Positions 10,797 to 61,320 of a DNA stretch of 64,000 nucleotides are shown one piece after another. The stretch spans positions 237,276 through 301,275 of the forward strand of contig JAGNKU010000001.1 in the NCBI GenBank assembly GCA_017999985.1, given 5' to 3'. The notes under the pieces were generated by a model. That model was not told the origin of the DNA and searched no databases. It saw nothing but the letters and a program-made list of their open reading frames with translations. Within the stretch, counting starts at the first letter, position 1, and every line of letters begins with the position of its first letter. A program made the position numbers and the translations under genes. This DNA is from Phycisphaerae bacterium. GTDB taxonomy: Bacteria > Planctomycetota > Phycisphaerae > UBA1845 > Fen-1342.

Positions 10797-10814
10797 GGTC
10801 AGGCTCCATGTGAA

Positions 10815-41011: not shown

Positions 41012-41018
41012 AATGTTC

Positions 41019-42349: not shown

Positions 42350-42430
42350 ACGGACTCTGCGGGGCGCGCCCGTTCGCCCGCGCCACGCGGCACAGCGCGG
42401 CGCGGATGAAACGGGTCGGCGGTGACGGGC

Positions 42431-42946
42431 CTACGACTCGCTCGCGGCGCCGGCAGCTTCCTCGAGCGCGGCCACCAGCTCCTCGGACCCGAGGACCTTG
42501 TCGATGTCGAGCAGGATCTTCACGTCGTCCTTGACCTTGCCCATGCCCATGATGAAGGTCGTATCGACCGACGCGCCCAACGGCGGCGGCGGATCGATCT
42601 GCGTCCCATCGATGTCCAGGACTTCCTGCACCGTGTCCACGATCACCCCCACCAGCGAGCCGACATCGACGACCACGATGCAGGTCTGCTCCGTGTACTC
42701 CGCCGACTCGAGCCCGAACTTCGTCCGCAGGTCGATGACCGGAATCACCTTGCCGCGCAAGTTGATCACGCCCTTGACGTACGGGGGCATCTGCGGCATC
42801 GCCGTGATGTCCATGATCCCGATGATCTCGCGGACCTTCAGGATCTCCAGCCCGTACTCTTCCGCGGCCAGGCTGAACGTGAGGTACTTGCCGCCCTGGG
42901 CGGTGTTGCGGCTCCGACTGCTCTTCTCGATCTGCGCTGCTTGCAT
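42431..42946 (-). CDS. cheW: Chemotaxis coupling protein CheW
   Basis: YLTFSLAAEEYGLEILKVREI...PYVKGVINLRGKVIPVIDLRTKFGL. Confidence 0.9.
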   Translation of the reverse strand: MQAAQIEKSSRSRNTAQGGKYLTFSLAAEEYGLEILKVREIIGIMDITAMPQMPPYVKGVINLRGKVIPVIDLRTKFGLESAEYTEQTCIVVVDVGSLVGVIVDTVQEVLDIDGTQIDPPPPLGASVDTTFIMGMGKVKDDVKILLDIDKVLGSEELVAALEEAAGAASES

Positions 42947-42958
42947 GGGTTCACACTC

Positions 42959-45451
42959 CTAGGCCGGCGCGGTGACCGGCTCGGCCGGGCACGCGACACC
43001 GCTGCTGGGCAACGCCGCACCAACGGCGTCGCAACCGTACTCGTCTGGCTCCGTGTCGAGCGGGGACGGCGGCCGCTCCGCCGACCCGGGGGAAACGGTG
43101 GGGGCCTGGTACGCCGCGCTGCCCCGCTGCTTGTGCAGCGCCAGCAGCCCGGTCGGCTCCAGAATCACACCGACGCGCCCGTCGCCGAGGATGGCGGCGC
43201 CGGACACGCCCTGCACGCTCTTGAAACGCTCGCCGAGCGTCTTGATCACGACCTGCTGCTGGCCGATCAGCTCGTCCAGCACGAGGGCGATCTTCTGCCC
43301 CTCGCACTGCACAATCACCACCAGGTTCTCGCAGGGGTCGATCGGCGCGCCATAGCCGAACAGCGCCCCGAGCTGGATCAGCGGGCACAGCTCGCCGCGC
43401 ACCTGCAGCATCGCGCCCCGCCGCTGCACGCTCGTGATCTGCCGCGGCTCCGGCCGCAGCGACTGTTCGATCAGGATCGTCGGGATGATCATGCGCTCGC
43501 TGCCGACGCGCACCAGCATGCCGTCGATGATCGCCAGCGTGAGCGGCAGGCGGATGAAGAAGACGCTGCCGCGCCCCTTCTCCGACTGGATCTCGATCTT
43601 GCCGCGGAGCTGTTCCACGTTCCGCCGCACGACGTCCATCCCCACCCCGCGTCCCGAAATGTCGGTCACGACTTCCGCGGTGGAGAAGCCGGGCTGCAGG
43701 ATCAGCGCGAAGGCCTGCTGGTCGGAGAGCTGGTCGTCGGCCGTGATCAGCCCGCGCTCGATACCCTTGGCAATCAGCTTCTGCGGATCGAGCCCGCGCC
43801 CGTCGTCGCGAATCTCGATCACGATGCTGTCGCCCTGGTGATACGCGTTCAGCAGCACCTGCCCGACTTCCGGCTTGCCGGCCGCCAGGCGGTCCGCCAC
43901 CGGCTCGATGCCGTGGTCCACCGCGTTGCGGACCATGTGCACGAGCGGGTCGGACATCTGCTGGATGACGTTCTTGTCCAGCTCGGTCTCCTCGCCGTTA
44001 ATCACCAGCTCGACCTGCTTGTTGGCCTTGCGGGCCACGTCGCGCACCAGCCGGCGCATCTTCTGGAAGGTCTGTCCGATCGGCACCATCCGCATCGCCA
44101 TCGCCGTTTCCTGGACGTCGCGGACAATCTTGGTCACCTGCGACACGTTGCGGTGCAGCTTCTCGTCGCCCGTCACCGCCTCGGTCAGGCACACCATCGA
44201 CTGCGCGATCACCAGCTCGCCGACCGCGTCCACCAGCATGTCCAGCTTGTGCGTGTCCACCCGGATCGAGTGATCCATCACCGGCTTGCCCGCCGACTGC
44301 TGCGACAGCGCCCGCTCCACGTCGCCGACACTGGCCGCGCCTTCGTCGACCAGCACCTCGCCCAGCTTGCGCTGCGGCGGCGTATCCCGTTCCTGCGTCC
44401 GCAGCGCCGCGTGCACCTGGGACGCCGTCGCGGCCCCTTCGGCCACCAGCAGCTCGCCGAGCATCGGGCGGGCTGGCGCGGTCGCCGCCGGAGCCGCGGC
44501 GCCCGGCTGGGCCGCCCGCCGGAGCTGTCTCATGACGGCGCTGATCTCCGGCTGCGGGCACGGCCCACCGGTCGGGGCCGCCATGTAGCGCCGGATGGCG
44601 TCGAGCTGCGCCTTCAGCACGTCCACGCTGGCGAAGATCAGGTCCACGGTGCCCGCCGTGATGCGCAGCTCGTTCTTGCGGCCCTGGTCCAGGATCGTCT
44701 CGATTTCGTGCGTCAGCCGGTTGATGTCGCGCAGGTTCAGGAAACCGGCGATGCCCTTGATCGTGTGGAACGGTCGGAAGAGCTCGTCGATCTTGGTCGT
44801 GTCCGTCGGGTCTGTCTCGAGCGCGAGCAACCCGGCCTCGATCGCGTCCATGTGCTCGGTGGACTCGTCGAGGAAGCCGACCAGGTGCTCGCGCTCGCTC
44901 AGATCGAGCACCAGCGGCTCGCTGACATATGTCTCGTCCGGCGCCGCGGGCGCTGCGGCCCCAGGGGCGGACGCCGCGCGCTCGGGCACCGCAGGCGCCG
45001 ACGGCGGCGCCGGGGCCGGCGTCACCGCGTTCACCGGCGCACTGGGCGGCGGCGCGGGCGACGGGGCGACGGCCGGCGGCGCCGGAGGCGCGCCGGCCCC
45101 CGCCGCCGGGCCGTTGACGGCTTCGCGGATGCGCGTCACCAGCGAGTCCGCGGCAACCGTCTGGCCTTGATGGGCCTGTTCAATCAGGCACGCGGCTTCG
45201 GAGACGAGCGCAATCCCGAGTTCCGGGTTGGCGGCCTCGTCGAGAATCAGGCGTTCCAGCAGCAGCACGAGGCTCTCCGCCATCTGCCCGATGGGCGGGC
45301 TCACGACCGCGCCACCGCCCGGGGAGGCCGCCTCGACCAGGCTCTGGCCCCAGGAGTGCATGCGCGCCAGGCGCCCCAGGTCGTTCCTCTCCGGGGGCGT
45401 CGAGATTGCCTCGTGCAGGCCCGCGATTGCCGCTTCAACTGCTTGTTTCAT
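42959..45451 (-). CDS. cheA: Chemotaxis histidine kinase CheA (HPt, Pro/Ala-rich linker, dimerisation, HATPase, CheW-like domains, ~70-aa C-terminal extension)
   Basis: HPt (ELFRPFHTIKGIAGFLNL), HATPase (DHGIEP...GDSIVIEIRDDGRGLD...GRGVGMDVV), and a CheW-like C-terminal domain. The start is ATG 45451 (MKQAVEAAIAGL) inside track ORF 42959..45664. Confidence 0.9.
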   Translation of the reverse strand: MKQAVEAAIAGLHEAISTPPERNDLGRLARMHSWGQSLVEAASPGGGAVVSPPIGQMAESLVLLLERLILDEAANPELGIALVSEAACLIEQAHQGQTVAADSLVTRIREAVNGPAAGAGAPPAPPAVAPSPAPPPSAPVNAVTPAPAPPSAPAVPERAASAPGAAAPAAPDETYVSEPLVLDLSEREHLVGFLDESTEHMDAIEAGLLALETDPTDTTKIDELFRPFHTIKGIAGFLNLRDINRLTHEIETILDQGRKNELRITAGTVDLIFASVDVLKAQLDAIRRYMAAPTGGPCPQPEISAVMRQLRRAAQPGAAAPAATAPARPMLGELLVAEGAATASQVHAALRTQERDTPPQRKLGEVLVDEGAASVGDVERALSQQSAGKPVMDHSIRVDTHKLDMLVDAVGELVIAQSMVCLTEAVTGDEKLHRNVSQVTKIVRDVQETAMAMRMVPIGQTFQKMRRLVRDVARKANKQVELVINGEETELDKNVIQQMSDPLVHMVRNAVDHGIEPVADRLAAGKPEVGQVLLNAYHQGDSIVIEIRDDGRGLDPQKLIAKGIERGLITADDQLSDQQAFALILQPGFSTAEVVTDISGRGVGMDVVRRNVEQLRGKIEIQSEKGRGSVFFIRLPLTLAIIDGMLVRVGSERMIIPTILIEQSLRPEPRQITSVQRRGAMLQVRGELCPLIQLGALFGYGAPIDPCENLVVIVQCEGQKIALVLDELIGQQQVVIKTLGERFKSVQGVSGAAILGDGRVGVILEPTGLLALHKQRGSAAYQAPTVSPGSAERPPSPLDTEPDEYGCDAVGAALPSSGVACPAEPVTAPA

Positions 45452-45969: not shown

Positions 45970-46722
45970 TCACGACCCCTGAGTAAGCAGCAGCACGAAT
46001 GGATTAACGTCGGCGAAGGTCACATAACCGTCGCGATTCACGTCGGCACCGCAGCGGGCTGCCACGCTCGCCGCCGCCGGATCGACGAGCACGCTGACGA
46101 ACGGATTGATGTCGGCGAAGGTTGCTTCACCGTTGCCGTCCACGTCGCCCGTTTCGCACTCCACGACGGAGAGGCGGAGCGTGAACGGCTCCGAATCCGC
46201 GTAGCCGGTGCTGCCCCGGTCTTCCAGGCTGAACGTCCCGTACCACAATGTACGCAGCGGGTCGTAGAGCGGGTCCGCGCAGTCCACGACGAAGATCACG
46301 TGGCGGTGCAAGGTCGCAGAGCCCAGCGGCAGCGACTCACCCGCCTCGTGGACGGTCGTCGTGCCATACTTGACGCGAAACGCCGGCTGCAAGTCTTCGT
46401 AGGCGACGAGGTAGATCGCCGCCCCGTAGTCAAGCAGGAAGTAGTCCTGCGCCGGATCGGATGCGAAGTTCGCATCGAAGCCGGGACTCGTCGCCCGCCA
46501 GCTCGTCGGCGCCGTCGGGTCCGGGATCGGCGTCAACAGGCCGATCCCGACCGCCGGCTCAAAGCACGGATTCTGCGCGTCGGACAGGCGACACTTGAGC
46601 TGCCCTGCCGCCGAGTGCCCGACGCCGATATCACCCGAGTGTTGCGCAAGCGCGGCGACCGTGGCAAACGACAGCCATAGGAGTCCCACCACCGTCCTAC
46701 GTATACTGCTGAAACTGCACAT
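45970..46722 (-). CDS. Small secreted protein with C-terminal dockerin-like double repeat
   Basis: Signal peptide MCSFSSIRRTVVGLLWLSFATVAALA with a GGAGG RBS. The C-terminus is GDVDGNGEATFADINPFVSVL...GADVNRDGYVTFADVNPFVLLLTQGS. The start is ATG 46722 inside track ORF 45970..47052. Confidence 0.6.
   Translation of the reverse strand: MCSFSSIRRTVVGLLWLSFATVAALAQHSGDIGVGHSAAGQLKCRLSDAQNPCFEPAVGIGLLTPIPDPTAPTSWRATSPGFDANFASDPAQDYFLLDYGAAIYLVAYEDLQPAFRVKYGTTTVHEAGESLPLGSATLHRHVIFVVDCADPLYDPLRTLWYGTFSLEDRGSTGYADSEPFTLRLSVVECETGDVDGNGEATFADINPFVSVLVDPAAASVAARCGADVNRDGYVTFADVNPFVLLLTQGS
45973..46155 (-). other. Dockerin-like C-terminal double-repeat module (copy 2 of 4)
   Basis: ETGDVDGNGEATFADINPFVSVLVDPAAASVAARCGADVNRDGYVTFADVNPFVLLLTQGS. 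Confidence 0.55.
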
Positions 46723-46754
46723 GGGAATGCCTCCGAAATCACACCGCTCGCAAG

Positions 46755-47375
46755 CTAGACGCTTTGCCGCCGACGCGCGACTGCCAGCACGCCCGCCGCC
46801 AGCAACAACGCCGCGCTCGGCTCGGGCGCAAACGTCACCGTCACCGGATCGCTGGCCAGATGCGCAGCGCCGGTCCGCAGATCCACAAACCGAAATGTCA
46901 CGTCCCACGCCGTCACGGTCGGGTCGTAGTGGGGGTCCGTCGTGTCGATGTGCCACCAGACGTGCTCGTGAAAATCCCCCAGGCCCGGGAAGTTGTACGT
47001 CTGCCCCGCCAGAATCTGGAAGCCCGTCTCGCCCGGCCCCAGCGGATTCCACACCTTGAACGCCGTGCCGCTCACCGCCAGCAACTCGAATCCGATGTCC
47101 GCCGCGGCGTCCACCGGCACGAAATCCGGGTCGTCCGGATCCGGCCCATCCAGTCCGATCAGGCCCGGATCGTCGAGCGCCCAGCCAACCAGCAATAGGT
47201 GTTCTGAGCGCGGCAACGCAAAAGGATAGAGGTCCGGGTCATACTCGACCTCGAGCTGGTTGGTCGGCGCATTCACGCCAATGAGAAAGTCCTCGCCGTG
47301 GGCATGCGCCCAAGTAATCGCCGGCGTAAGCGCCGCAACAGTAAGGACCGTCAATGCGAAAGCAAATCGTGTCAT
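46755..47375 (-). CDS. PEP-CTERM sorting-domain protein
   Basis: Signal peptide MTRFAFALTVLTVAALTPAITWA with a GGAGG RBS. The C-terminal PEPSAALLLAAGVLAVARRRQSV is the canonical PEP motif plus TM helix plus basic tail. Confidence 0.7.
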   Translation of the reverse strand: MTRFAFALTVLTVAALTPAITWAHAHGEDFLIGVNAPTNQLEVEYDPDLYPFALPRSEHLLLVGWALDDPGLIGLDGPDPDDPDFVPVDAAADIGFELLAVSGTAFKVWNPLGPGETGFQILAGQTYNFPGLGDFHEHVWWHIDTTDPHYDPTVTAWDVTFRFVDLRTGAAHLASDPVTVTFAPEPSAALLLAAGVLAVARRRQSV

Positions 47376-47422
47376 GGGTTTCAAACCTCCGAAGTGAAAG
47401 TGACGCGCAATGCGCCGTGCGC

Positions 47423-48196
47423 TCAACGCGCCACCGTCGGGTCATACTTGTTGAACAGCCAGGTGACCGTGCCTCCGGGGTCGGTCGGCTGCTGATCGAT
47501 CAGAAACGTCTCTTCGAATGAATGCCGCGCGGCGTGCCCGTCGATGAATCCATAGTTTCCCCGCCCGAGATGGCGCTCCAGGACTACCTGGGTCGCCGCC
47601 TCGCGCTTCTCCGCCGGGTGCATCTCGCCCCAGAGCTCCGGGTGCACGTGGTCCGCTAGCGCGTAGGGCCCGGTCTCAGCCAGCTCGACAAAAAGAACCG
47701 TCGCCACCGGTCGGCGAATCCAATCCAAGCGGTTGTACGCGTGCCCGTCGCGCTCCCAGAGCGGACTGTCGATCCCGCCCGCCGCGACATAGAAGTTCGT
47801 CGCGAAACTCGTCCGGCGCAGGGGGCCGCTTTGCGGCGTCAACGGCTGCGTCCAGTGCGGACTCGCATCGGCCGGACAGCGCAGAACGTTCCGATTGTCG
47901 CCGTACTCGCGGGTCATCTCGAGGATCCACGAGTGCGCGGCATGCGCTTCCCCGCCGCCGTGCATGTAGCCAAACTCCGGCAGCCAGCCGTTGTGGCTCT
48001 CAGCGTACATGAACGCCGCGAGGCTCAGGCTGCGCAGGTTGCTCGCGCAGACCACCGCGCGCGCCTGCTGACGCGCGCGCCCCAACGCCGGCAGCAGCAC
48101 TGACACGAGCAGGGCGATGATCGCCACAACGACTAGCAACTCAATCAACGTGAACCCGCGCAGCGCGGGGCGCTGCCGGCCGGTCACCATGGCCAT
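47423..48196 (-). CDS. DUF1559 domain protein with prepilin-type N-terminal cleavage/methylation signal (H-X9-DG family)
   Basis: [25 protein letters not shown] (the type IV pilin-like N-methylation motif) followed by the DUF1559 body, a family greatly expanded in Planctomycetota. Confidence 0.8.
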
Positions 48197-48815
48197 GTCG
48201 CTCCTCCGGGAACTGCGGCCCAGCGCGGAAGCTCGGTAATTGTGAGTGCAGAACTACACTGCGGGGAGGAGAGATGACGGCGGGGCGCGCGCGCACGCCA
48301 CGGGAGCGCTGCGCGTGTGAGTGATGATCGTTGGTGCATCACCGGCTGCCAGCGCCGGCCGCGGATCCGCCAGCTCCAGGCCGACGGGCAGCTCGGCGAC
48401 AATGGCCGGCGCGAGCGCGCACAACGAACAATCGTGGGGGCTGCCGGGATCGCCGCCGCGCTCGTCATCAGCCGGTGTCGCGGCATGATGGTGCCAGCCC
48501 TGGATCGGAGCGACCAGCGTCGGCGTACATGCGCCGAGCACGACGAGCACAACCCAGTGACGCGACGGAAGCATCAACCCGAAACCCGAGGCACGTAGCA
48601 ACACCCAGTGGTATTACGAAGTATTAAGGATCATAACCTCGCGTGCGGGCCTGTCAACGGGTCGCGGTGGACGCACACATCAATTCATGGAGCTTGAATT
48701 CCGATGACCGACGGTCCTAAAACCGAATGAGCCGCGGGTTCGAGCGGGGCTCCGCGCGTTGCCGGCAGCACGGCAGCCCGCGATGGACACGAACGTGGTT
48801 CCCAAGGAGTGGAAG

Positions 48816-49397
48816 ATGTCCACGAAACTGGAAATTACCGCACGTATTTTGCTTGCTGTCGGCATGTTAGCCATCGTGACCGCCGCCAGCGCGAACACCG
48901 TGGCGACGTTCGCCGATCCGGCCCCGGATGGCGCGACTCCGCTCTTCACGCTCGCTGGCGCTTCCTTCACCGGCGGCTGGAGCGGCACTGGCCTGACGCT
49001 GGAAGTACCGTTCACGGGTCAGAGTTGGAACGACGCCACGTTTACACTTACCCCCTTGACGCTTATCGGTCCTGGACAGCTTTCCGCCGGCACGCTCGAG
49101 TTTTTCAAGAGTGTGACCGACGGGGGCGGCCAGATCCTAAAGATCGACTTTGATTTCGCGGGGCTGGCGTTGTTCGGATTCGGTGCATCCGACGTATTTG
49201 GGCAGGCGGTAACGATCTCGGGACCGGGCCTGCCGGTTGGACTGACGGACGAGACGTTCGCGTTCAGTTTCGCGAACCCCGTGCCCACGTCCAACGGGTA
49301 TACGTTCACGGCCGCGTTCACTTCGTCCGCCATTCCGGAGCCGACCAGCCTGGCCCTGCTGGGTCTGGGCGTCTGCGGTCTGCTCCGCCGAAGATAG
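48816..49397 (+). CDS. PEP-CTERM sorting-domain protein
   Basis: Signal peptide MSTKLEITARILLAVGMLAIVTAASA with an AAGGAG RBS. The C-terminus is IPEPTSLALLGLGVCGLLRRR. Confidence 0.7.
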   Translation: MSTKLEITARILLAVGMLAIVTAASANTVATFADPAPDGATPLFTLAGASFTGGWSGTGLTLEVPFTGQSWNDATFTLTPLTLIGPGQLSAGTLEFFKSVTDGGGQILKIDFDFAGLALFGFGASDVFGQAVTISGPGLPVGLTDETFAFSFANPVPTSNGYTFTAAFTSSAIPEPTSLALLGLGVCGLLRRR

Positions 49398-49594
49398 CAG
49401 CGCGACCACCACTCCAGGTCGCATGAATCGGCCCACGGCGACGCGTCGTGGGCCGTTTTCATTGGGGCGCCGGGTTTACGGCGGCCGGGCGCGGGGGTAG
49501 GGTTCACCGTTACGTTCGATTCCGAGCGCGGCGCCGGAACGTGGGTTCGTGCCCAAGCCATCGCGAAGCATTCATCACGTGGAGGTGTTGTACC

Positions 49595-51589
49595 ATGCGC
49601 AACCTGGCGATCATCACCGGTTTGATCCTCGTGGCGGTCCTCGCCGCGGGCAGCGCCCCGGCGGACCCTGTAACGACCCGCAGTTTATTGGCTCAGATGG
49701 CGGACCTGGGAGCGCTGGCCGAGTTTCCCGAGCCGCCCTACACCTGCCGCCAGTTCTCCAGCTACGATCGCGCCTCGACGTCACCGGCCGACCAGGAGAA
49801 GTGGTTCGCCAACGCGGATGCGAATCAGTACCTGCGCATCGAGGAGCACGACGGCCAGAAGGAGTATGTGATGATGGACGCGGACGGCCCCGGTGCCATC
49901 GTCCGCATCTGGTCGGCCAACCCGAAGGGCACCCTGCGCATCTACCTCGACAAGAGCGCCCAGCCAACACTGGAAGTGCCGATGGCCGATCTGCTCGGCG
50001 GGAAGTTCGCCGGCATCCCGACGCCCATCGCACACGAGGCGAGCCGAGGCTGGAACAGCTATTTCCCCATCCCCTACGCCACGCACTGCCGCATCACGAA
50101 CACCGAAGGCGGCTTCTACTACCACGTCAACTATCGCACGTATCCCGCCGGCACCGCCGTCACGACCTTCACACCGGACGATCTGAAGGCCCTCGCGGCG
50201 GACGTGACCGCGGTCGCGAAAGCGCTCGCCGCCCCGTCGGCAGCGTCCGGCGAGCGCGCGGTGCCGCGCGATGAGAAGGCAGCCATCGTCCAGCCCGGGA
50301 AGGAGCTGGAAGTGTGGAAGTCGGCCAGTGCGCCGGCCGCGATCCGCGGGCTCGCGTTCGAGGTGCAGGCCGCGGAGCGCGAGCGTGCCCTGCGCGAGCT
50401 GCTGCTCGTGCTGGAGTTCGACGACCAGTCCCCGGTCGTCTGCCCGCTGGGCGACTTCTTCGGCGCGGGTCCGGGCGCGCGGCCCTACGAGTCGCTGCCG
50501 CTAGGTGTTACTGCGGAGGGCGTGCTGTGGTCGCACTGGGTCATGCCCTTCCGCAGCACGGCGCGCGTCGTGGTCCGCAACGCGGGCGCGCAGGCGATCA
50601 CGCTCAATCAACGCCACGTGGAGGCGGCGCCGTATACCTGGACAGACCGCACCATGTACTTTCGCGCGGGCTGGCGTGTGTCGCGTGACGTCCCGACGCG
50701 TCCCTTCCAGGACTGGAACTACGTCAGCGTGAAGGGCCAGGGTATCTTCGTCGGGGCGGCGTTCACACTCGCCAACCCGTCCAAGGCCTGGTGGGGCGAG
50801 GGCGACGAGAAGATCTACGTCGACGGCGAGGAGTTCCCCAGCCACTTCGGCACGGGCACCGAGGACTACTACGGCTATGCCTGGGGCTCGCCCGCGCTCT
50901 ACACCAACGCCTACCACGCGCAGCCACGCTGTGACGGACCGGGCAATTACGGCATCACGGCCGTAAACCGCTGGCACATTCTCGACCGCATCCCGTTCCA
51001 GCGCGACTTTCGCTTCGACATGGAGCTCTGGCACTGGTGGGAAGGCATCGTGCCGGAGATGTCCGTCATGACCTACTGGTACGCGCGCCCGGGCGCTACC
51101 AGCAACCGCACGGCCCCGCAACCGGCGGACCTCCAACTCGTCACGCTGCCACCCTACGTGCCGCCGAAGGTCGCGGGTGCGCTGGAGGGCGAGGAGCTCC
51201 GCATCCTGGCGCAGACCGGCCAGGTCGGCCCGCAGGACATCGACAAGTGCAGCGGCGAGCGCCACCTCTGGTGGCGCGAGGGCAAGCCCGCCGACAAACT
51301 CGTGCTCGCGTTTCCCGCGCCGGCAGCCGGCCAGTACCGCGTGTTTGGTCGCTTCGTGAAGGCCGGCGACTACGGGATCGTGAAGCTGTCGGTCAATGAC
51401 CAGGCTGCCGCCGAGCCGTTCGATTTCTACAACGATGGCGTGACGGTTTCGGACGAAATGTTGATCGGCGTATTCAACCTGTTGCCCGAGGACAACAAAC
51501 TGGCCGTTGAGATCATTGGTCGCAACGAGAAGGCCATCCCGGGTCACATGTTCGGTCTCGACTACCTGCGACTGGAACCTGTCAAATAG
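49595..51589 (+). CDS. Secreted DUF2961 / glycoside hydrolase family 172-like protein
   Basis: Signal peptide MRNLAIITGLILVAVLAAGSAPA with a GGAGG RBS. WWGEGDEKIYVDGEEFPSHFGTGTEDYYGYAWG is the signature motif of DUF2961 (GH172); a C-terminal beta-sandwich follows. Confidence 0.8.
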   Translation: MRNLAIITGLILVAVLAAGSAPADPVTTRSLLAQMADLGALAEFPEPPYTCRQFSSYDRASTSPADQEKWFANADANQYLRIEEHDGQKEYVMMDADGPGAIVRIWSANPKGTLRIYLDKSAQPTLEVPMADLLGGKFAGIPTPIAHEASRGWNSYFPIPYATHCRITNTEGGFYYHVNYRTYPAGTAVTTFTPDDLKALAADVTAVAKALAAPSAASGERAVPRDEKAAIVQPGKELEVWKSASAPAAIRGLAFEVQAAERERALRELLLVLEFDDQSPVVCPLGDFFGAGPGARPYESLPLGVTAEGVLWSHWVMPFRSTARVVVRNAGAQAITLNQRHVEAAPYTWTDRTMYFRAGWRVSRDVPTRPFQDWNYVSVKGQGIFVGAAFTLANPSKAWWGEGDEKIYVDGEEFPSHFGTGTEDYYGYAWGSPALYTNAYHAQPRCDGPGNYGITAVNRWHILDRIPFQRDFRFDMELWHWWEGIVPEMSVMTYWYARPGATSNRTAPQPADLQLVTLPPYVPPKVAGALEGEELRILAQTGQVGPQDIDKCSGERHLWWREGKPADKLVLAFPAPAAGQYRVFGRFVKAGDYGIVKLSVNDQAAAEPFDFYNDGVTVSDEMLIGVFNLLPEDNKLAVEIIGRNEKAIPGHMFGLDYLRLEPVK

Positions 51590-51654
51590 CAGAAATCTCG
51601 ACGAAAATAGCGATTTTTCACTGGTAAGTTTCTGAAAGCGTTATATACTTAAAT

Positions 51655-51730
51655 GTGTCCGAGCGGAGCGCGGCACGTACAGGTTTCCCCCCCGGCCTGT
51701 CGGCCCCCCGCTCGGACATTTTGTTTTCCC
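51655..51730 (+). terminator. Hairpin plus T-run downstream of the GH172 gene, preceded by an AT-rich patch
   Basis: gtccgagcgg ... ccgctcggac (a 10-bp stem with a large, internally GC-rich loop) followed by attttgttttc. Confidence 0.35.
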
Positions 51731-51916
51731 GCCGCTTCTGATTCCCGCGAACAGCGTCCCCGCCCGGCAGGAGCGCGCCGATGCGCGCGGGTCACACCGC
51801 CGAGGGTCTCGGATATACTCCGAACCATCAAGGTCGTTCGACGCGCCGCCCCAGCGTCGCTGGTGCCCGCCGCGCGATCCGCCGGGACACATCCAACCAC
51901 CGCGTGAGGTCTGAGC

Positions 51917-53479
51917 ATGCAAGTCAACCTGGATGGGAACTCGCTTTCGATCGAGCAGATCGTCGCCGTCGCGCGCGACTGGGCCACCGTCGCCATTGCC
52001 CGCGCGGCGCGCGACAAGGTCCAGCGCTCGCGCGATTTCCTCGAAAAGTGCGTCAAGGACGGCATCGCCATCTACGGCGTCACCACCGGCATCGGCGAGC
52101 TGGCGCGCGTCCGCATCTCGCCGGAGCAGAGCGCCGAGCTCAGCCGCCGGATCGTCTACAGCCACTCCGCCGGCACGGGTGCGCCGTTTCCGGAGGACGC
52201 AGTCCGCGCCGCCATGCTGTTGCGCGCCAATGTGCTCGCCAAGGGCTACTCCGGCGTGCGGCTCAGCCTGCTTGACACCGTCGTCGAGATGCTCAACAAG
52301 GGCGTCATCCCCTACATCAATGAGAAAGGCTCGCTCGGCGTCAGTGGCGACCTCTCGCCGATGTCGCAGTTCGCCGAGGTCGCGATCGGTGAGGGCCGCG
52401 CGTACTACAAGGGCGAACTCATGTCCGGCGCCGATGCGATGCGCAAGGCCGGTGTGCAGCCCACCGATCTCACGTTCAAGGAGGGCCTGGGTCTGATCAA
52501 CGGCTCGCAGATGATGACCGGCGGCGCGGCGTTATTGTGCTATGACGCCGAGCGCGTGCTGAAGAACGCCGTCATCGCGGGTGCCATGACGCTCGATGCG
52601 CTGCGGGCCGTCGAGCGGGCGTTCGATCCGGCGATCCACCGCGCCCGGCCGTATCCCGGGCAGAACGCCATCGCGGCGAATCTCGTGCGCCTCTTCGCCG
52701 GCAGTCAGATCATGGCGGACAAGACCGGCAAGGTGCAGGACGGCTACAGCATGCGTTGCACGCCGCAGGCGCTCGGCCCCTCGTTCGATACGCTGGAACA
52801 TGTCCGCAAGATGGTCCACATCGAAGCGAACTCCGCCGCGGACAACCCGCTCTTCTTCCCCGACGAGCAGCAATACTTCGCGGCCGGCAACTTCCACGGC
52901 CAGCCGATCGGCATGGCGGTCGACTTCCTGTGCATCGCGCTGGCCGAGGCCGCCGACCTGTCCGAGCGGCACACGAATCGCCTGCTCAACCCGGTGCTCT
53001 CCGGCCTGCCCGACTTCCTCGTCCAGGGCAACGGCCTCAACTCCGGGCTGATGGTCGCGCAGTACACGGCCGCCGCGCTGGTTTCCGAGAACAAGGTGCT
53101 GTCGCATCCAGCGTCGGTGGACTCGATCAGCGTGTCGGCGGACCAGGAGGACCACGTCAGCATGGGGCCGATCGCGGTCCGCAAGTGCGGGGAGATCCTG
53201 CGGAACGTGCGGGCGGTGCTGGCGGTCGAGATGATGTGTGCCGCGCAGGCGTTCGACTTCTACCCGGGCAAGCGGCCGGGCAAGGGCACGAAGGTTGCGT
53301 ACGACCTGATCCGGTCGAAGGTGCCGATGCTGAAGGACGATCGCGTGCTGTACCCGGACATCGAGGCGATCCGGCAGCTCATCGAATCAAACGCGATTCT
53401 CGAAGCGGTGGAGGCGGAAGTCGGCCCGCTGCTGCTGTCGCGCGACATGGACCTGCCCGAGCCGAATGTGGGGAAGTGA
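51917..53479 (+). CDS. Aromatic amino-acid ammonia-lyase family enzyme, closest to histidine ammonia-lyase
   Basis: IYGVTTGIGELA, IVYSHSAGTG (HAL-like S-H selectivity pair), GSLGVSGDLSPM (MIO-forming triad, here V-S-G instead of the usual A-S-G), and NPL...NFHGQ. GAGG RBS upstream. Confidence 0.85.
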   Translation: MQVNLDGNSLSIEQIVAVARDWATVAIARAARDKVQRSRDFLEKCVKDGIAIYGVTTGIGELARVRISPEQSAELSRRIVYSHSAGTGAPFPEDAVRAAMLLRANVLAKGYSGVRLSLLDTVVEMLNKGVIPYINEKGSLGVSGDLSPMSQFAEVAIGEGRAYYKGELMSGADAMRKAGVQPTDLTFKEGLGLINGSQMMTGGAALLCYDAERVLKNAVIAGAMTLDALRAVERAFDPAIHRARPYPGQNAIAANLVRLFAGSQIMADKTGKVQDGYSMRCTPQALGPSFDTLEHVRKMVHIEANSAADNPLFFPDEQQYFAAGNFHGQPIGMAVDFLCIALAEAADLSERHTNRLLNPVLSGLPDFLVQGNGLNSGLMVAQYTAAALVSENKVLSHPASVDSISVSADQEDHVSMGPIAVRKCGEILRNVRAVLAVEMMCAAQAFDFYPGKRPGKGTKVAYDLIRSKVPMLKDDRVLYPDIEAIRQLIESNAILEAVEAEVGPLLLSRDMDLPEPNVGK

Positions 53480-53570
53480 AGCGACGCAGGGAACGGTGGG
53501 GAGGCTGCACGCGGCCACGCCCATCCCAGTGTGGCTCCGGCCAGTGGCCCGTGCTCAGGTATTCCCGGCC

Positions 53571-54944
53571 TCACTTACCGCCGGTCAGCGCCGCCACAAA
53601 CGGATTGATGTCGCCAAACCCGACTTCGCCGTCGGCATCCATATCACCGTGCAGCGGCGGGCAGTCGGGGTACATCTGCGCATACGCCGGCGGATTGCTC
53701 AGGGCCAGGACGAAGGGATTGATGTCGCCGAAGCCGATCGTCCCGCTGCAGTCGAGATCGCCAAACGGGATTTCGTAGGCGCCCATGTCGACGACGAACC
53801 GCGCGATGCGCGGGTGGCCATCGAGGTCGAGCGACCCCGCGGGCACCACGCCATTATCGCCCGCGTCGAGACACGGCGAAGCGAACGTGAGGCGGTAATC
53901 GTTATCCGCGATCGTACTCGGATCGTTGTCCGGCCCGTCGGGGTCGCGGAAGAGCGGATCGGCGTCGATGTTACCGTCGCCGCTCCAGCCGCCCTGTACG
54001 TCGCAGTGGGTCACGACCGGACTGCCCAAATAACCGTCGAATTGCTGCGGCGTGTTGGCCCAGAGAATGCAGTTCGTAACGACCGGGCTTGAGGATTGGC
54101 AGTAGAGGCCGCCCCCAGCGGTGCCGGCGATATTGCCCACGATCGTGCAGTTCCGCAACGCTGTGCCGGCGGCGGCGCAGTAAATACCGCCACCGTTATT
54201 CGTTCCTGTGTTGCGCGTGATGATGCAGCCGGTGAAGATCACACCGGAATTCGCGGAGTACACGCCGCCGCCGTTGCCGGCCGTGTTGTTGGCGATCCAG
54301 CAGTGGGTGAATGTCGGGCTGGAATCGACGCTGGAGATGCCGCCGCCAAGGTTATTGATGCTCGTGTTGCCCACGATGAGGCAGTTCGTCAGGCTCGCGT
54401 TGGAGGAGGCTTCGCAGCTCACGCCACCGCCGCCGGTACCCGCATTGCCGCTGATCGTGCAGTCGAGCAACGTGGGGCTGGCGTGCTCGCAGTGCAGCCC
54501 GCCCGCGAAGAACTGGGCTGTATTGCCCGTTATCACGCAGTTGCTCAGCGTCGGGTGGGCGGAGATGCAGTACACACCGCCTCCGCCAGGGTAGACCACA
54601 TTCCCATTGCGGATGGTGAGGCCCTGTACGAGCGCCGCCGCGGATTCGCCGCTGTGGAAGTAGAAGCCCCGGCCGCTGTTGCCGGAATCGATGATGCAGG
54701 TGGCCGGAGCGCCGCTCGCCGAGCGCACCGTGATCGCCAGACCGTGAAAATCGAGGTTCTTGTTGCCGGTGCCGGTGTAGGTGCCATCGGCGATGATGAC
54801 CGTGTCGCCGGCGACACAGGCATTGATGGCCGCCTGAATCGTGGCGTATGTGCCGGGCACATGCCGGTCGGTTGCCAGGGCGGTCGCGCCGCACAACAGT
54901 GCGAACGCGCACGAAAGGGCGATGAACTGGTTAACCCCGGCCAT
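53571..54944 (-). CDS. Secreted right-handed parallel beta-helix repeat protein (pectate-lyase fold) with C-terminal dockerin-like double repeat
   Basis: Signal peptide MAGVNQFIALSCAFALLCGATALA with a GGAGGAGG RBS. There are about 12 beta-helix coils (NCxIxGNTA..GGG pattern). The C-terminus is GDLDCSGTIGFGDINPFVLALSNPPAYAQMYPDCPPLHGDMDADGEVGFGDINPFVAALTGGK. Confidence 0.8.
   Translation of the reverse strand: MAGVNQFIALSCAFALLCGATALATDRHVPGTYATIQAAINACVAGDTVIIADGTYTGTGNKNLDFHGLAITVRSASGAPATCIIDSGNSGRGFYFHSGESAAALVQGLTIRNGNVVYPGGGGVYCISAHPTLSNCVITGNTAQFFAGGLHCEHASPTLLDCTISGNAGTGGGGVSCEASSNASLTNCLIVGNTSINNLGGGISSVDSSPTFTHCWIANNTAGNGGGVYSANSGVIFTGCIITRNTGTNNGGGIYCAAAGTALRNCTIVGNIAGTAGGGLYCQSSSPVVTNCILWANTPQQFDGYLGSPVVTHCDVQGGWSGDGNIDADPLFRDPDGPDNDPSTIADNDYRLTFASPCLDAGDNGVVPAGSLDLDGHPRIARFVVDMGAYEIPFGDLDCSGTIGFGDINPFVLALSNPPAYAQMYPDCPPLHGDMDADGEVGFGDINPFVAALTGGK
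53574..53762 (-). other. Dockerin-like C-terminal double-repeat module (copy 3 of 4)
   Basis: GDLDCSGTIGFGDINPFVLALSNPPAYAQMYPDCPPLHGDMDADGEVGFGDINPFVAALTGGK. Confidence 0.6.
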
Positions 54945-55015
54945 GTTCTTCCTCCTCCAGGTTGCGCCGCAGGGCGGACGAAATGCGGTGCCGCAGCACC
55001 ACGACGCCCTCCTGC

Positions 55016-55043
55016 AATATACCGACAGAGATGCGGGTCTCAA
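55016..55043 (-). promoter_or_regulatory. Candidate sigma70 promoter (TTGAGA-N16-TATATT) for the beta-helix/dockerin gene, overlapping a 14-bp perfect palindrome
   Basis: The minus strand reads ttgagacccgcatctctgtcggtatatt about 70 nt upstream of the start codon. It lies in a locally AT-rich patch, and the -35 region sits inside the palindrome CAAAATATATTTTG (55041..55054). Confidence 0.3.
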
Positions 55044-55224
55044 AATATATTTTGCGTCCGATAGTTGCGCGCCCCTGAATCGCCCGCGCAGCGGGTGTTT
55101 GTCGCGCCGGCCCAACTCCCTGTGAAGAAGATGCCGGGCCGACGAATGGGTCGACCCGGCATCCACGCAATACCCACAGCGCACCGCACCCCGGCCTCGG
55201 ACCGGGCCGCGGATGCGCCTCGTC

Positions 55225-56520
55225 TTACCGCCGGCGCAGGGCGATCACGCCCAGCAGCGCCAAGAGCGTCAGCGCGCCCGGCTCGGGCACCGCCAGCCGC
55301 AGAATCGCCTCGATTTCGCCCGTGCTGCCGATCGGAACGAGGCCGACCTCCACATATACGAACCCATCCTCGGCCAGGCACAGCCCCGGCCCGATAGTCG
55401 TGCTCGCCTTGAAGTCGGTGACAAGGTAGTCGGAAACCCCATCGCCGTTCGTGTCGATCTCGTCATTCGTCTGCAGCAACTGAACCGAATTGGCAAGATC
55501 ATCGCCCAGGCCGTAGAACAGATGCTCGTCGGCGCTGAGGCCCCACATGTGCACGACGCCGCCGAAATTGTTGATGCTCGCGGCTCGCAGAGCATAGCCC
55601 GACAGGAGCGTATGGCCGTCCAGCGTGTTGCCCTCGCGCACCGCGATCACGCCGTTGTATGCCAGGAACTCGTCGGTCGCCACCGCACCGTTGGTGTCGC
55701 CGGTGAAGATGTAGTTGCCGGCATTGTTGACACCCACGATGTCGAAGCTCTCCCACAGTTCGCCGCCGCCGGCCGAGTGGCCTTCCTGCGCGACGAACGC
55801 GCCGTCCAGGTAGACGTGCTCGTTGTTGGTCGTGGAACCCGTGTCCATGTCGAGCACGTGGATGTGGTGCAGCCCGTTGTCCGAGATCCAGTAGTCAAAA
55901 TTGCTCGCGGTCGTCTTGATCGGTATCCCGTTGATCAGGTCGCCGCCACCAAGCACGCGCGTAATCGACGCCGGGTTGCTTGGGTCCGTCGCCTTGAACA
56001 GGTGCCGGTTCGTCGAAGTGCTGCTGCCCTGGGTCGGCGTCGAGCCGCCCACCCAGTACGCCGTCCCGTCCGGCAACATCGTCGGCCGGCTGTTGAAGGA
56101 GCTGAACAGCCCCGGCAGCGGCGGAATCGGGTCGCCCTTCTGGAGCAACGTGCCCGCGTGCGTATGGACCGCGTCGTTGCCGTTCACCGATGGGCTGTAA
56201 ATGAACCCGCCCGTGTCGCTCACGCCCATCGTGCTTTCGCCGCCGGTCAGCACATCCGGCAGGGCGTCATTGGAGAAGAACACCGGTCCCGTGTTCCACC
56301 AGATGAAGCGCTGGCTGTCCGCCAGGCTCCCGACGAAGCCGACCCGGCCGTTGCCATCCGTAAACGGCGAGTTCAGCGTGCTGACGGTCGACACGCCCAG
56401 CGTGTCGCCCTGTCGCACGACCACGTAGGCCGGAATCGGGGGAAGCGCCAACGCCGTGCCCACGACACAGCCCACTGCCACAATCAAACTCACATGCATC
56501 CACTCTTTCCGATTCACCAT
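55225..56520 (-). CDS. PEP-CTERM sorting-domain protein
   Basis: GAGGAGG RBS, an N-terminal signal (MHVSLIVAVGCVVGTALA), a large Gly/Thr/Asn-rich beta-rich body, and a C-terminal VPEPGALTLLALLGVIALRRR. Confidence 0.7.
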   Translation of the reverse strand: MVNRKEWMHVSLIVAVGCVVGTALALPPIPAYVVVRQGDTLGVSTVSTLNSPFTDGNGRVGFVGSLADSQRFIWWNTGPVFFSNDALPDVLTGGESTMGVSDTGGFIYSPSVNGNDAVHTHAGTLLQKGDPIPPLPGLFSSFNSRPTMLPDGTAYWVGGSTPTQGSSTSTNRHLFKATDPSNPASITRVLGGGDLINGIPIKTTASNFDYWISDNGLHHIHVLDMDTGSTTNNEHVYLDGAFVAQEGHSAGGGELWESFDIVGVNNAGNYIFTGDTNGAVATDEFLAYNGVIAVREGNTLDGHTLLSGYALRAASINNFGGVVHMWGLSADEHLFYGLGDDLANSVQLLQTNDEIDTNGDGVSDYLVTDFKASTTIGPGLCLAEDGFVYVEVGLVPIGSTGEIEAILRLAVPEPGALTLLALLGVIALRRR

Positions 56521-56741
56521 TCTGATCCTCCTCTACGCGCGAACGCGTCGCCGCGTGCATTCAGACATGAGCGCCCGACCGGGCGCGCGCAGCGCGCTCC
56601 ACGCAAACGGGACCCTGATGACCGTACGGTGCACCCTGCCGTGCTTCTGCCGTCCCGACGCGGCCCAGCGTACCCGGGCACACCCTCCTCAAGCCACTAT
56701 CCTACGGGCCCGGACTGCCGAATGCAACCCCAACTTCACGC

Positions 56742-58991
56742 TCACGGCCCGCTAAGCAAGAGTACAAAAGCATTTATATCGCCGAAGCCGACGCTGCCGT
56801 CCCCGTTGCAGTCCGCGTGGTTCACGTCACAGTGCGGGAACGCCGCCGCGTACGCCACCGGGTTGGTCAACGCCAGCACGAACGGGTTGATGTCGCGGAA
56901 ATCCAGCCGGCCGTCGCAGTTCACGTCGCCGGGCAGCTCCGCACAACCCGTCGCATAGACCTGCACGTCATCCACGTTCCAGCCGCAGTACGCCCAGCCC
57001 GCGTCGGTCGGCCCCATCGTCCAGCGCAGGTAAACCGTCGGCTGATTGTCCGCCTCGGCGGAGATGTCGAAGTCCTGCAGCGTCCAAACGTTGTCCGCCA
57101 CTTCCGTCGTGTTCTGCCAGACCGTCACCCAGTTCACGCCGTCGCGGCTGACGCCCACCGCCGCCCGGTCGTAGGGCGCCTGCTCGACGCCCAGCCAGCG
57201 CCAGAACGACAGCCGCAGGCCCCATTGGCCACGACAATCGAACGGCAGGCTGGTCAGGTGCCGCTCGGGCAGGCTGTTCGTGTAGTCGCCGGCGAGGTTG
57301 TAGCCGTACACGTACGGCCCCGTGTGCCCGCTGGTGGGATCCGGTCCGCCGTGGGCCCCGCCGCCGCCCGTCGGCTGCCCCCACGCCCACTGTGCCTCCG
57401 TTGACCACCCGGGGTTGGCGGCCAGGTCATCCTCGAACACGGTGGTGCCGCTGACCATCCCCGCCGCATAGAGGTCCCCCGGCGCGCCGGCCGGGGCCAG
57501 CGTCACGCCGGCGTCGCCTACGACGCTGAAGTAGTACTCGGGGGTTGCGCCGCAATGGGTCCGCGGCAGCGCGCCGAGGAATGAGGCGCCGCCCAGATGC
57601 GTGAGCGGCACGACCGTGAAGGCCTCGTCCGCGTGATACCGGTAGTGCAAGAGGGCCGTGCCCACGTCCAGCACCTCGTCGGCCGAGGTGATCGTGACGG
57701 CGATCGGCGTGTCCGCGCCCACGACCAGTTGCGCGGGCAACCCATCCGGGAAGCGGAACTGCGTCGCGCGGACCATCGCCGAGTTCGTCAGGTGCAGCAG
57801 CGCCGGCAGCACCTCCTCGTTGTTCGGGATGATCTGGCTGGCCGGGAGGATGAAACCATACGTGCCCGTGTCGCGCAGCTCGAACGAAAACGAGAAGATG
57901 TCGCGCACCCCATACGTCCAGTCCGCGGAGCCGCCGCTCACCGGGTAAATCGTGCTATAGATCGGTCCGGCGGTGTAGGTGAGACCGTGCACGCTCTGAA
58001 TGAGCTGCTGCATGGCGAGCCCGACGGCCTGGTACGCTGGCTGGTCCGGCGGCAACTCCGGCTTGTAGCCCCAAGGCCAGAGAATGAGCTGCGAGTAGCT
58101 GTGAATGTCGTTCATGGCGCGGACCTGCGGATGCGCGATGAAAAAGTCGCGCAGCGCCTGGGTTTCGGGCTCGGAGAACGGGGCTGGGCCACGATACGTT
58201 TGCGAGCTGGGCAAGCCACTGGAGCCGTTCAGCCCCCAGCCCATGCCGAAGTTGCGGTTGATGTCGACGCCGAAAACCCCGCCGCCGTTGTCGCGCCGGT
58301 TCTTCCGCCAGAGCCGGTCGTTTGTCCACGTGTAGACGTAGCCATCCGGGTTGCCCACCGGGATCAGGAACCACTCGACGTGGTCGACGACGTCGGTGAT
58401 CGCCGGATCGAGGCCGTAATTCGCCAGCAGGTGCGTGGCCACGTACTGTGGCACAGTCGGCCCGATCCATTCGCGGGCGTGCAGGCCGGCGAAGTAGACG
58501 ACGGCTGGGCTGGTCGGCGGCAGCGCTGGTCCCGCGATCCGCAGTCCCCAGATGGTCCGGCCCTCGAGGGACGTACCGACGTTGATCACCGCGGCGAGGT
58601 CTGGGTAGCTCGCCGCAAGCTGGTTCAGATACGTCACGATGTCGTCGTAGGCGTGGTAGGCGTCGAACCAGCCGCGTGGGGCCGCCGCCTGCTCGGTATC
58701 GATCAAGTGCTGCACGTCCTCGATCCAGACGTGGTACGGGACCCCAAGCCCCTCCAACTCCGCCAGCATCCCCGGCGGCAGCAGCACGTCGACGGGCCCG
58801 CGGCCCACGTGCTCGGTCCAGAGATCCGCCCCCCGCGCGAGCAGCGGCGCCAACGCCTGCTCATCCGTCCCCCAGACGCGCGCCACCTGGCAGCCGTCGT
58901 AGCGGCGCGGCGTCTCAGCGGCCGCGGCCAGGCCCCATGGCCACAACCAGATCGTCCCCACCATGAGTACAACTCGACTCGGGCTGCGCAT
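56742..58991 (-). CDS. Secreted M14 zinc carboxypeptidase with C-terminal beta-sandwich and dockerin-like double repeat
   Basis: Signal peptide MRSPSRVVLMVGTIWLWPWGLAAAA with a GGAGG RBS. M14 core (AGLHAREWIG zinc HxxE, VDINRNF, NDIHSYSQLILWPWGY, SGGSADW). The C-terminus is GDVNCDGRLDFRDINPFVLALTNPVAYAAAFPHCDVNHADCNGDGSVGFGDINAFVLLLSGP. Confidence 0.85.
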   Translation of the reverse strand: MRSPSRVVLMVGTIWLWPWGLAAAAETPRRYDGCQVARVWGTDEQALAPLLARGADLWTEHVGRGPVDVLLPPGMLAELEGLGVPYHVWIEDVQHLIDTEQAAAPRGWFDAYHAYDDIVTYLNQLAASYPDLAAVINVGTSLEGRTIWGLRIAGPALPPTSPAVVYFAGLHAREWIGPTVPQYVATHLLANYGLDPAITDVVDHVEWFLIPVGNPDGYVYTWTNDRLWRKNRRDNGGGVFGVDINRNFGMGWGLNGSSGLPSSQTYRGPAPFSEPETQALRDFFIAHPQVRAMNDIHSYSQLILWPWGYKPELPPDQPAYQAVGLAMQQLIQSVHGLTYTAGPIYSTIYPVSGGSADWTYGVRDIFSFSFELRDTGTYGFILPASQIIPNNEEVLPALLHLTNSAMVRATQFRFPDGLPAQLVVGADTPIAVTITSADEVLDVGTALLHYRYHADEAFTVVPLTHLGGASFLGALPRTHCGATPEYYFSVVGDAGVTLAPAGAPGDLYAAGMVSGTTVFEDDLAANPGWSTEAQWAWGQPTGGGGAHGGPDPTSGHTGPYVYGYNLAGDYTNSLPERHLTSLPFDCRGQWGLRLSFWRWLGVEQAPYDRAAVGVSRDGVNWVTVWQNTTEVADNVWTLQDFDISAEADNQPTVYLRWTMGPTDAGWAYCGWNVDDVQVYATGCAELPGDVNCDGRLDFRDINPFVLALTNPVAYAAAFPHCDVNHADCNGDGSVGFGDINAFVLLLSGP
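56745..56930 (-). other. Dockerin-like C-terminal double-repeat module (copy 4 of 4)
   Basis: GDVNCDGRLDFRDINPFVLALTNPVAYAAAFPHCDVNHADCNGDGSVGFGDINAFVLLLSGP. Confidence 0.6.
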
Positions 58992-59100
58992 GCTCTCGAC
59001 CTCCAGAGGTGCAGGGGTCAGTCCGAGCCCCATTATAGCAGCCGGCCGCGCCGTCCCGGCGGCCTTCTGGCGGCAAAATCCCCGCGTCCCCCGCGTTCCG

Positions 59101-61320
<2,220 letters not shown>

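Follow-up and report, generated by a model that had tools for sequence, protein, structure and literature searches.

A conserved four-gene operon with a CruR/CutF-like leader in an apparently native, secretome-rich stretch of a Phycisphaerae chromosome

We analysed a 64-kb stretch of DNA from a Phycisphaerae bacterium (assembly GCA_017999985.1, contig JAGNKU010000001.1, positions 237,276 to 301,275; hereafter the window, in whose coordinates all positions are given), and in particular 13 kb of it (45970-58991) that an initial annotation had presented as an accessory-looking island of secreted and surface proteins. The picture that we favour instead, and hold to be probable as a whole, is that of native DNA divided into six or more transcription units, one of them a conserved operon of four genes that begins with a putative metal-sensing leader. 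Its parts differ in firmness: that the operon is a conserved unit is highly probable, that the 13 kb belong to the native Phycisphaerae chromosome and are not an acquired island is very probable, and that the leader works as an arrest peptide sensing metals is a tentative proposal, drawn from its motifs and from analogy with the CruR and CutF proteins.

The region contains the nine open reading frames (ORFs) of the initial annotation, whose coordinates proved correct, and one small ORF that had been overlooked (48254-48574, minus strand). From left to right, the nine encode P1, P2, P3, P4, a GH172/DUF2961 protein, the histidine ammonia-lyase HutH, P7, P8 and P9. GC content is about 68% across the window, and identical proteins are present in assembly GCA_029564015.1 and on metagenome contigs from JGI. 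Taken as a 13-kb accessory island, the region would be ordinary: secretome-rich stretches are expected in planctomycetes, and no foreign mark is found in this one. Its interest lies in an operon that keeps one domain in two copies with different anchors (PEP-CTERM and dockerin), beside a DUF1559 protein and behind a CruR/CutF-like leader.

Conservation of the four-gene operon

The operon (45970-48657, minus strand) consists of the leader ORF, P3, P2 and P1, in this order. Beyond P1, it is flanked by a chemosensory operon with the gene order CheA-CheW-CheD-HDOD-RR (RR, response regulator; 40586..45451, minus strand). We compared the window with loci of related lineages, designated by L-numbers, and found orthologues of P3, P2 and P1 in the same order in L087, L088, L090, L092, L093, L095 and L101. 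Identity to the window proteins, L101 excluded, ranges from 57 to 73% for P3, from 43 to 65% for P2 and from 55 to 66% for P1; in the more distant L101, the operon is kept at 33-43% identity and is followed by an H+-pyrophosphatase (H+-PPase) gene. The family of P1 homologues comprises about 33 clusters, and a scan of metagenomes with the P1 alignment returned nine loci, three of which were of use. The contexts of P1 homologues always show a prepilin-type/DUF1559 protein, then a protein of about 200 aa, then the P1-like protein. We found no published description of the four-gene operon in the literature searched.

Synteny extends beyond the operon on one side. The P3-P2-P1 trio is followed by the CheA-CheW-CheD-HDOD-RR operon in five lineages, the window included (five of the six informative contexts), and the left boundary of the proposed island thus cuts through a block of genes that is conserved across lineages. 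On the side away from the che genes, gene content differs by lineage; in L090, the operon is also flanked by P4 and a tyrosyl-tRNA synthetase (TyrRS), as in the window. A functional link between the operon and the Che operon is possible, if somewhat doubtful. The two are separated by a GC-rich spacer of 518 nt between the P1 stop codon and the CheA start codon (45452-45969), which measures 231-407 nt in the other lineages. This spacer shows no terminator-like site and no Rfam match, and transcription of the operon may continue into cheA.

Several other observations concern the operon or its surroundings. Type VI secretion genes lie near it in L088 (VipA/VipB, 16440-20870), and a VgrG-like Phage_GPD protein is encoded near it in L101 (5340-7598). 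In addition, two proteins from other assemblies combine parts of its products. P0033 (357 aa) is a fusion of P2 (91% identity) to P1; in P0052 (91 aa), the N-terminal 40 residues of the leader are followed by fragments resembling P2 and the tail of P1. These are either natural deletion or frameshift variants of the operon or assembly artefacts.

P1 and P2, paralogues with different anchors

P2 (46755..47375, minus strand) consists of a signal peptide, an uncharacterised beta-sandwich domain and a PEP-CTERM anchor, while P1 (45970..46722, minus strand) has a signal peptide, a beta-sandwich of the P2 type and a type I dockerin tail with two calcium-loop repeats. The two proteins match each other in BLASTP (E = 3e-7), and an hhalign alignment of 174 columns (probability 98.9%, E = 1.9e-17) covers both from the signal peptide up to where the anchors begin. 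P1 also cross-matches a PEP-CTERM protein of L101 (E = 1.6e-13). Judging from these alignments, P1 and P2 form a paralogous pair in which the anchor has been swapped. Within each family the anchor is stable, as all 32 P1-family members end in a dockerin tail (26 of them match PF00404, best E = 3e-9) and all 17 P2-family members end in a PEP motif, a transmembrane (TM) segment and basic residues. Given these tails, the P2-type paralogue would depend on an exosortase, and the P1-type paralogue would use calcium-dependent dockerin docking. The predicted model of P2 has a predicted local distance difference test (pLDDT) score of 87.5, and a Foldseek search of the PDB with P1 returned nothing below E = 1e-3. 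A histidine-brace reading of P2, of the kind seen in lytic polysaccharide monooxygenases (LPMOs) and CopC, was set aside, the N-terminal histidine not being invariant.

The initial annotation had counted three PEP-CTERM proteins in the region, a count that we retain. With the models PF07589/TIGR02595 (cutoff 20.7 bits), P2 reaches 21.0 bits and P4 28.5; P8 stays below the cutoff with 18.1 bits, but its tail of VPEP motif, TM segment and RRR is canonical. P2, P4 and P8 thus resemble substrates of the PEP-CTERM/exosortase (EpsH) sorting system (Haft et al. 2006, PMC1569441), in which a Sec signal is combined with a C-terminal PEP motif, TM segment and basic cluster. Unlike the described systems, there is neither an exosortase nor exopolysaccharide (EPS) genes in the window.

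The number of dockerins has to be revised upwards, since the single small dockerin protein of the initial annotation gives way to three proteins with a dockerin-type tail, P1, P7 and P9. The tail follows the pattern DxNxDGxxxFxDINPFV, which occurs twice per protein and is visible at the DNA level as the repeat families D1/D3. Scores against PF00404 (cutoff 22.9 bits) are 17.2 bits for the P1 and P9 tails, and P7 has no match. The duplicated calcium-binding loop and helix of the type I dockerin fold are present, and by sequence the three tails appear to be type I dockerins. They depart from those of cellulosomes (Xyn10B/XynY, 2ccl_B; PF00404) in the 'INPFV' motif of their helices, in a conserved pair of cysteines and in scores below the Pfam threshold; in addition, the host is a planctomycete of Gram-negative type and no cohesin is encoded in the window.

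The exchange of C-terminal anchors has a precedent in the choice-of-anchor families of NCBIfam: P7 carries a choice-of-anchor Q domain, and P1 and P2 present a single domain with alternative anchors. What sets the operon apart from the usual PEP-CTERM and choice-of-anchor cases is that the alternative anchor is a dockerin and that both versions are kept in one operon across the class. The juxtaposition of three anchoring signals would then be a fixed design of this operon.

A DUF1559 protein of the prepilin type

P3 (47423..48196, minus strand) has an N-terminal methylation motif, the N-terminal region of DUF1559 and a C-terminal H-X9-DG motif. It had been described as a DUF1559 protein with a prepilin signal, and the profile matches agree: 30.5 bits with N_methyl (cutoff 21.2) and 24.8 bits with SBP_bac_10/DUF1559 (cutoff 23.3), the latter covering only about 55 N-terminal positions of the 268 in the model. 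An H-X9-DG motif, the definition of which we take to be that of TIGR04294, is seen by eye in all P3 orthologues. P3 is similar in these three respects (cleavage/methylation motif, DUF1559 N-terminal region and H-X9-DG) to the DUF1559/H-X9-DG proteins of planctomycetes at large (PF07596), and differs from them in belonging to a specific orthologous subgroup that is locked into a four-gene operon. DUF1559 forms the largest paralogue family in planctomycetes, with 68 copies in P. limnophila and a function annotated as unknown (PMC10632474).

A putative metal-sensing leader

The long spacer between P3 and P4 (48197-48815) had been described as divergent promoter DNA. It does separate divergent genes, but it is not empty, as it holds the overlooked ORF (48254..48574, minus strand), which encodes a DUF2946/CruR/CutF-like protein of 106 aa. 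About 50 nt upstream of this ORF lies a site resembling a sigma-70-type promoter (48630..48657, minus strand; TTGACA-16-TATGAT, 11 of 12 positions). Orthologues of the leader are found upstream of P3 in L087, L088, L090, L092, L093 and L101. The window copy comprises a hydrophobic N-terminal export segment, WHHH, CSLC, an interval of 43 residues and RAPP located seven residues before the stop codon. In the alignment of seven members, all have the hydrophobic N-terminal segment, W-H-x-H is invariant (WHHH in six of the seven), CxxC is invariant in all seven, and AR[AGS]PP is invariant at 2-7 residues before the stop codon. The distance between CxxC and R.PP is 43 residues in eight out of eight cases, although the sequence in between is poorly conserved. 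The statistical tie to DUF2946 (PF11162) is modest: four of the seven members match it (best E = 3.2e-5), and a precomputed match exists for P0053.

This architecture recalls two regulatory proteins of proteobacteria. CruR of B. pertussis (Bp2923) has CXXC and RAPP motifs spaced by 45 +/- 1-2 residues and acts through copper-dependent relief of translational arrest combined with Rho termination; a fixed spacing and an arrest motif are the signature reported for such arrest-coupled sensing (PMC9426467). CutF of R. capsulatus, which has CxxxC and a proline-rich stall sequence, senses copper, is exported co-translationally and unmasks the Shine-Dalgarno (SD) sequence of the next gene (PMC9973294; bioRxiv 10.1101/2025.02.05.636593). 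Like them, the leader is shorter than 150 aa, comes first in its operon, and combines an N-terminal export segment and CxxC with an RAPP-type or proline-rich motif near the C-terminus at a fixed spacing; a short spacer leads to the next gene, which has the same orientation. The leader passes the filters used to recognise CutF-like proteins, namely a length below 150 aa, PP among the final 15 residues, an export signal and a same-strand gene downstream (PMC9973294), and its spacing of 43 residues falls at the edge of the published CruR-family range.

By analogy, the nascent leader would sense a periplasmic metal through WHHH and CxxC while the ribosome stands on R[AGS]PP, and this sensing would tune expression of the three surface proteins encoded downstream. 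The metal could be copper or, given the histidine run, nickel, cobalt or zinc; in the CutF survey, some clusters have only histidines and are tied to nickel or cobalt (PMC9973294). Differences from CruR and CutF are found in the additional invariant WHHH and in the cargo, which in those systems is a TonB transporter, a multicopper oxidase or an efflux system and here consists of a pseudopilin-like protein and two anchored beta-sandwich proteins.

Several results weigh against the leader being a metal-sensing arrest peptide. The window copy scores 13.2 bits with DUF2946, below the cutoff of 23.7, and a phmmer search with the leader against 1.84 billion representatives returned four matches and no canonical DUF2946 protein. 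The window copy also has a weak ribosome-binding site (RBS) and an only moderate GC content at third codon positions (GC3 = 0.76). The SD-masking stem-loop expected from the CutF model is not conserved, as the window and L093 show pairing, L090 and L092 part of it and L088 none, with fold z-scores that are not significant; nor do the leader-P3 spacers show the rut-like excess of C over G expected from the CruR model.

These results bear on an alternative for this ORF, according to which it would not encode a regulatory leader at all but a stable small protein of the membrane or periplasm, either a metal-binding subunit of a P3-P2-P1 surface complex or its chaperone, or else a CzcI/CopL-like protein that functions without arrest. 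The lack of a conserved masking structure or rut signal would fit such a protein, as would a spacer to P3 that varies between 57 and 272 nt across lineages and the fact that some DUF2946/CutF-like proteins do not show arrest-type behaviour (PMC9973294). However, a strict spacing of 43 residues across a variable sequence, together with AR.PP close to the stop codon, is unexpected for a folded subunit, and we consider this alternative possible but clearly less likely than the arrest peptide, itself a tentative assignment.

If the leader does act like its proteobacterial relatives, a DUF1559-family protein would acquire a candidate function related to metals and a specific handle on its regulation, the system would amount to a natural experiment on the choice of a C-terminal anchor, and the non-cellulosomal dockerins of a cohesin-poor phylum would gain a defined set of partners. 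A broader and, as a whole, rather unlikely extension is that the operon constitutes an undescribed Phycisphaerae surface module, in which a sensor of the CruR/CutF type gates a pseudopilin-like protein and two possibly metal-binding beta-sandwich proteins on two attachment systems, in genomic coupling with a Che-type pathway. Such a module could be an apparatus for capturing or sensing metals at the cell surface, and with it, metal sensing by arrest peptides would reach Planctomycetota as well as cargo not devoted to detoxification. To our knowledge, Planctomycetota are largely devoid of classical TonB-dependent uptake. Long 'promoter' gaps in high-GC genomes may, more generally, conceal functional leader ORFs.

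A real concentration of export signals

The initial annotation had every gene of the region except the lyase encoding an exported protein, and this holds: export signals are found in eight of the nine genes, as opposed to 4-9 of the 33 genes located elsewhere in the window (Fisher's exact test, p = 3e-5 to 1.4e-3). The three targeting signals that it named (PEP-CTERM, prepilin-type and dockerin) do occur together with carbohydrate- and peptide-active domains (GH172 and M14). Strong RBSs of the GGAGG type were likewise found upstream of all eight genes for secreted proteins (AAGGAG in the case of P4), while HutH has only GTGAGG. To obtain a baseline for the rare tails, we applied a pattern heuristic to the C-termini encoded by 565 kb of unselected DNA from other Phycisphaerae. 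It detected five dockerin-like tails, all at the extreme C-terminus, and two PEP-CTERM-like tails, i.e. about one per 113 kb and one per 280 kb, respectively, counts that are approximate, as the heuristic misses the PEP-CTERM tail of P4. Against this baseline, three dockerin-like tails in 13 kb (Poisson p = 2e-4) and the two PEP-CTERM tails recovered by the heuristic (p = 1e-3) are both in excess. The unusual concentration of exported and surface proteins in these 13 kb is statistically real.

One explanation for this concentration would be a native secretome regulon, in which the run of PEP-CTERM and dockerin proteins is co-regulated, for instance by the adjacent two-component genes, and builds a single surface structure. 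Contrary to the statement that no regulator is present in the window, a hybrid histidine kinase (HK; 59101-61386) adjoins P9 and is accompanied by an RR-Hpt protein (61706-62875), besides the CheA/W/D-HDOD-RR genes and a GntR regulator (10407-10910). The immediate adjacency of the two-component pair argues for such a regulon, as do the three dockerin-like and three PEP-CTERM tails, far above the baseline, the uniformly strong SD sequences and the choice-of-anchor domains of P7 and P9. On the other hand, the arrangement is kept only within the species, HutH is interspersed among the genes, these have separate promoters and terminators, and no shared upstream motif was found, no search having been aimed at one; a single regulon is improbable. 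The region had also been taken for one locus, whereas promoter- and terminator-like sites divide it into at least six transcription units. The mosaic that we favour nevertheless leaves the clustering of rare tails beyond chance, and the shared logic at which it hints, unexplained, which counts against it. A role in surface remodelling or polymer degradation common to all genes, as initially suggested, is neither shown nor excluded.

Profile scans of the window ORFs agree with the initial annotation that neither an exosortase nor a cohesin is encoded in any of them. The exosortase, and any cohesin, must be encoded elsewhere.

Native chromosome or acquired island

The remaining question is whether the 13 kb were acquired horizontally, as an accessory island forming a single system for surface remodelling or polymer degradation. 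Besides the dense content in secreted proteins and the presence of a carbohydrate-active enzyme (CAZyme) and a peptidase, base composition could be cited in favour of this scenario, since GC content is 3% below that of the rest of the window (0.655 for the nine genes of the region and 0.686 for the 34 others, p = 5e-4). However, this deficit sits in first codon positions (GC1, p = 0.006), and low GC1 is common to secreted proteins outside the region too; the lower GC content is thus due to amino-acid composition. In GC3 (p = 0.29) and synonymous-codon likelihood (p = 0.80), the genes of the region are indistinguishable from the 34 others. The initial annotation had proposed a comparison with the rest of the genome; made against the rest of the window, it shows no deviation beyond GC1.

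Mobility functions are missing as well. No integrase or transposase was detected with Pfam across the window, and no repeats, att-like or other, were found flanking the region. ARAGORN called a tRNA-Arg(gcg) at 55181-55270 (minus strand), which we considered as an integration site and rejected: the call spans 90 nt, it shares sequence with the 3' end of the P8 gene, and Rfam returned nothing for it at E <= 1, which makes it a probable false positive. An Rfam scan of positions 45000-60000 for riboswitches and small RNAs returned nothing.

Comparative evidence is split. All six same-species contigs carry the region, each with an unchanged gene order along the part that it covers. For wider comparison, we anchored synteny on HutH in 80 species loci. 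In about 40 other Phycisphaerae species, the surroundings of HutH contain neither genes of the region nor those of its flanks, GH172 in L038 excepted. Since the flanks lack synteny just as the region itself does, HutH-anchored synteny is uninformative on the island question. The initial annotation had named a gene order conserved across the family, and the absence of compositional deviation, as what would speak against an island. About half of this is what we find: P3-P2-P1 and the che genes are syntenic across lineages, while the right-hand part of the region is not, and a true synteny breakpoint lies inside the proposed island, between P4 and GH172.

Weighing on the other side, no other genus shows synteny with the genes from GH172 to P9, save for the GH172-HutH pair in L038, and these right-hand genes may be accessory at the genus level. 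Against acquisition as an island stand the native GC3 and codon usage, the lack of mobility genes, att-like repeats or a supported tRNA, a housekeeping-type HutH in the middle, the presence of at least six transcription units, and a left third that is conserved together with the che operon across genera. For 45970-49400, the island is already largely refuted. Overall, we regard an acquired island as very unlikely. Chance juxtaposition of these genes in a genome rich in secreted and DUF1559 proteins, for which the size of the DUF1559 family (PMC10632474) and the poor synteny across the whole window could be invoked, is equally improbable in view of the enrichment statistics; for the four-gene operon, it is already refuted by the depth of conservation.

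P4 and the right-hand genes

To the right of the operon, P4, GH172, HutH, P7, P8 and P9 would be separately transcribed native genes, the order of which is fixed within the species and not between genera. Their secreted products would be exported by Sec and then attached by means of an exosortase or a dockerin partner whose genes lie elsewhere. P4 (48816..49397, plus strand) is a small PEP-CTERM protein followed by a terminator-like hairpin and T-run (49429-49455), and is monocistronic. Its codon usage is the most atypical of the 43 genes tested (GC3 of 0.747 and lowest synonymous-codon likelihood), and an orthologue (63% identical) is found at the same position in L090 only. The next gene encodes a secreted protein (49595..51589, plus strand) for which the GH172/DUF2961 label is well founded, with a match of 229.8 bits and the precomputed domains GH172_1st, GH172_dom and GH172_2nd; a hairpin with a T-run follows at 51656-51718.

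The initial annotation had located the only AT-rich patches of the window in two spacers, 48197-48815 and 54945-55224. In fact, 100-bp intervals with a GC content of 0.50 or less occur only at 51421-51700, where the lowest value of the window (0.39) is reached, and at 10871-10970. The first of these patches covers the last 170 nt or so of GH172 and the spacer to HutH, with its hairpin.

HutH (51917..53479, plus strand) is cytoplasmic. It had been called a HAL-like lyase; the protein is indeed a non-exported lyase, and a score of 609 bits with TIGR01225 (cutoff 539) makes it a bona fide histidine ammonia-lyase rather than merely a HAL-like one. The triad forming the 4-methylideneimidazol-5-one (MIO) group is Val-Ser-Gly, where the textbook triad is Ala-Ser-Gly, and its first residue is V, T, S, C or A across the HutH clade (loci L007-L086). 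HutH is 50-64% identical to its counterparts in many metagenome-assembled genomes of Thermoplasmatota and of Asgard archaea (Thor-/Promethearchaeota; L044-L086), and this unusually high identity between bacteria and archaea may reflect inter-domain transfer of the HutH clade.

The last three genes lie on the minus strand. P7 (53571..54944) has a signal peptide, a beta-helix made of 26-aa coils with the choice-of-anchor Q domain, and its dockerin tail. The match to choice-of-anchor Q (27 bits, cutoff 25) and the 78-nt repeats that encode the coils are consistent with the beta-helix protein initially described. Upstream of P7, within the spacer 54945-55224, which is long but not divergent as had been stated (P7 and P8 are both on the minus strand), lies a promoter-like site (55016-55043, minus strand). 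An AT-rich palindrome (55036-55059, region of GGTCTCAAAATATATTTTGCGTCC) overlaps this site and could be an operator. P8 (55225..56520) consists of a signal peptide, DUF7453 and the PEP-CTERM tail. With a beta-helix or an enzyme domain ahead of the dockerin in P7 and P9, and DUF7453 ahead of PEP-CTERM in P8, these proteins fit the choice-of-anchor pattern of NCBIfam.

P9 (56742..58991) is an M14 carboxypeptidase with a pro-peptide, an extra C-terminal domain and its dockerin tail. Its labelling as an M14 peptidase is borne out by a match of 314 bits to Peptidase_M14, alongside Propep_M14, and by intact active-site motifs (HAREW, NPDG, DINRN, HSYS and FSFELR are all present). Another secreted M14 carboxypeptidase is encoded in the window at 14313-17177 (plus strand), in fusion with ankyrin repeats and a CarboxypepD_reg domain; it is adjoined by a PDZ-S41 peptidase (17294-19519, minus strand).

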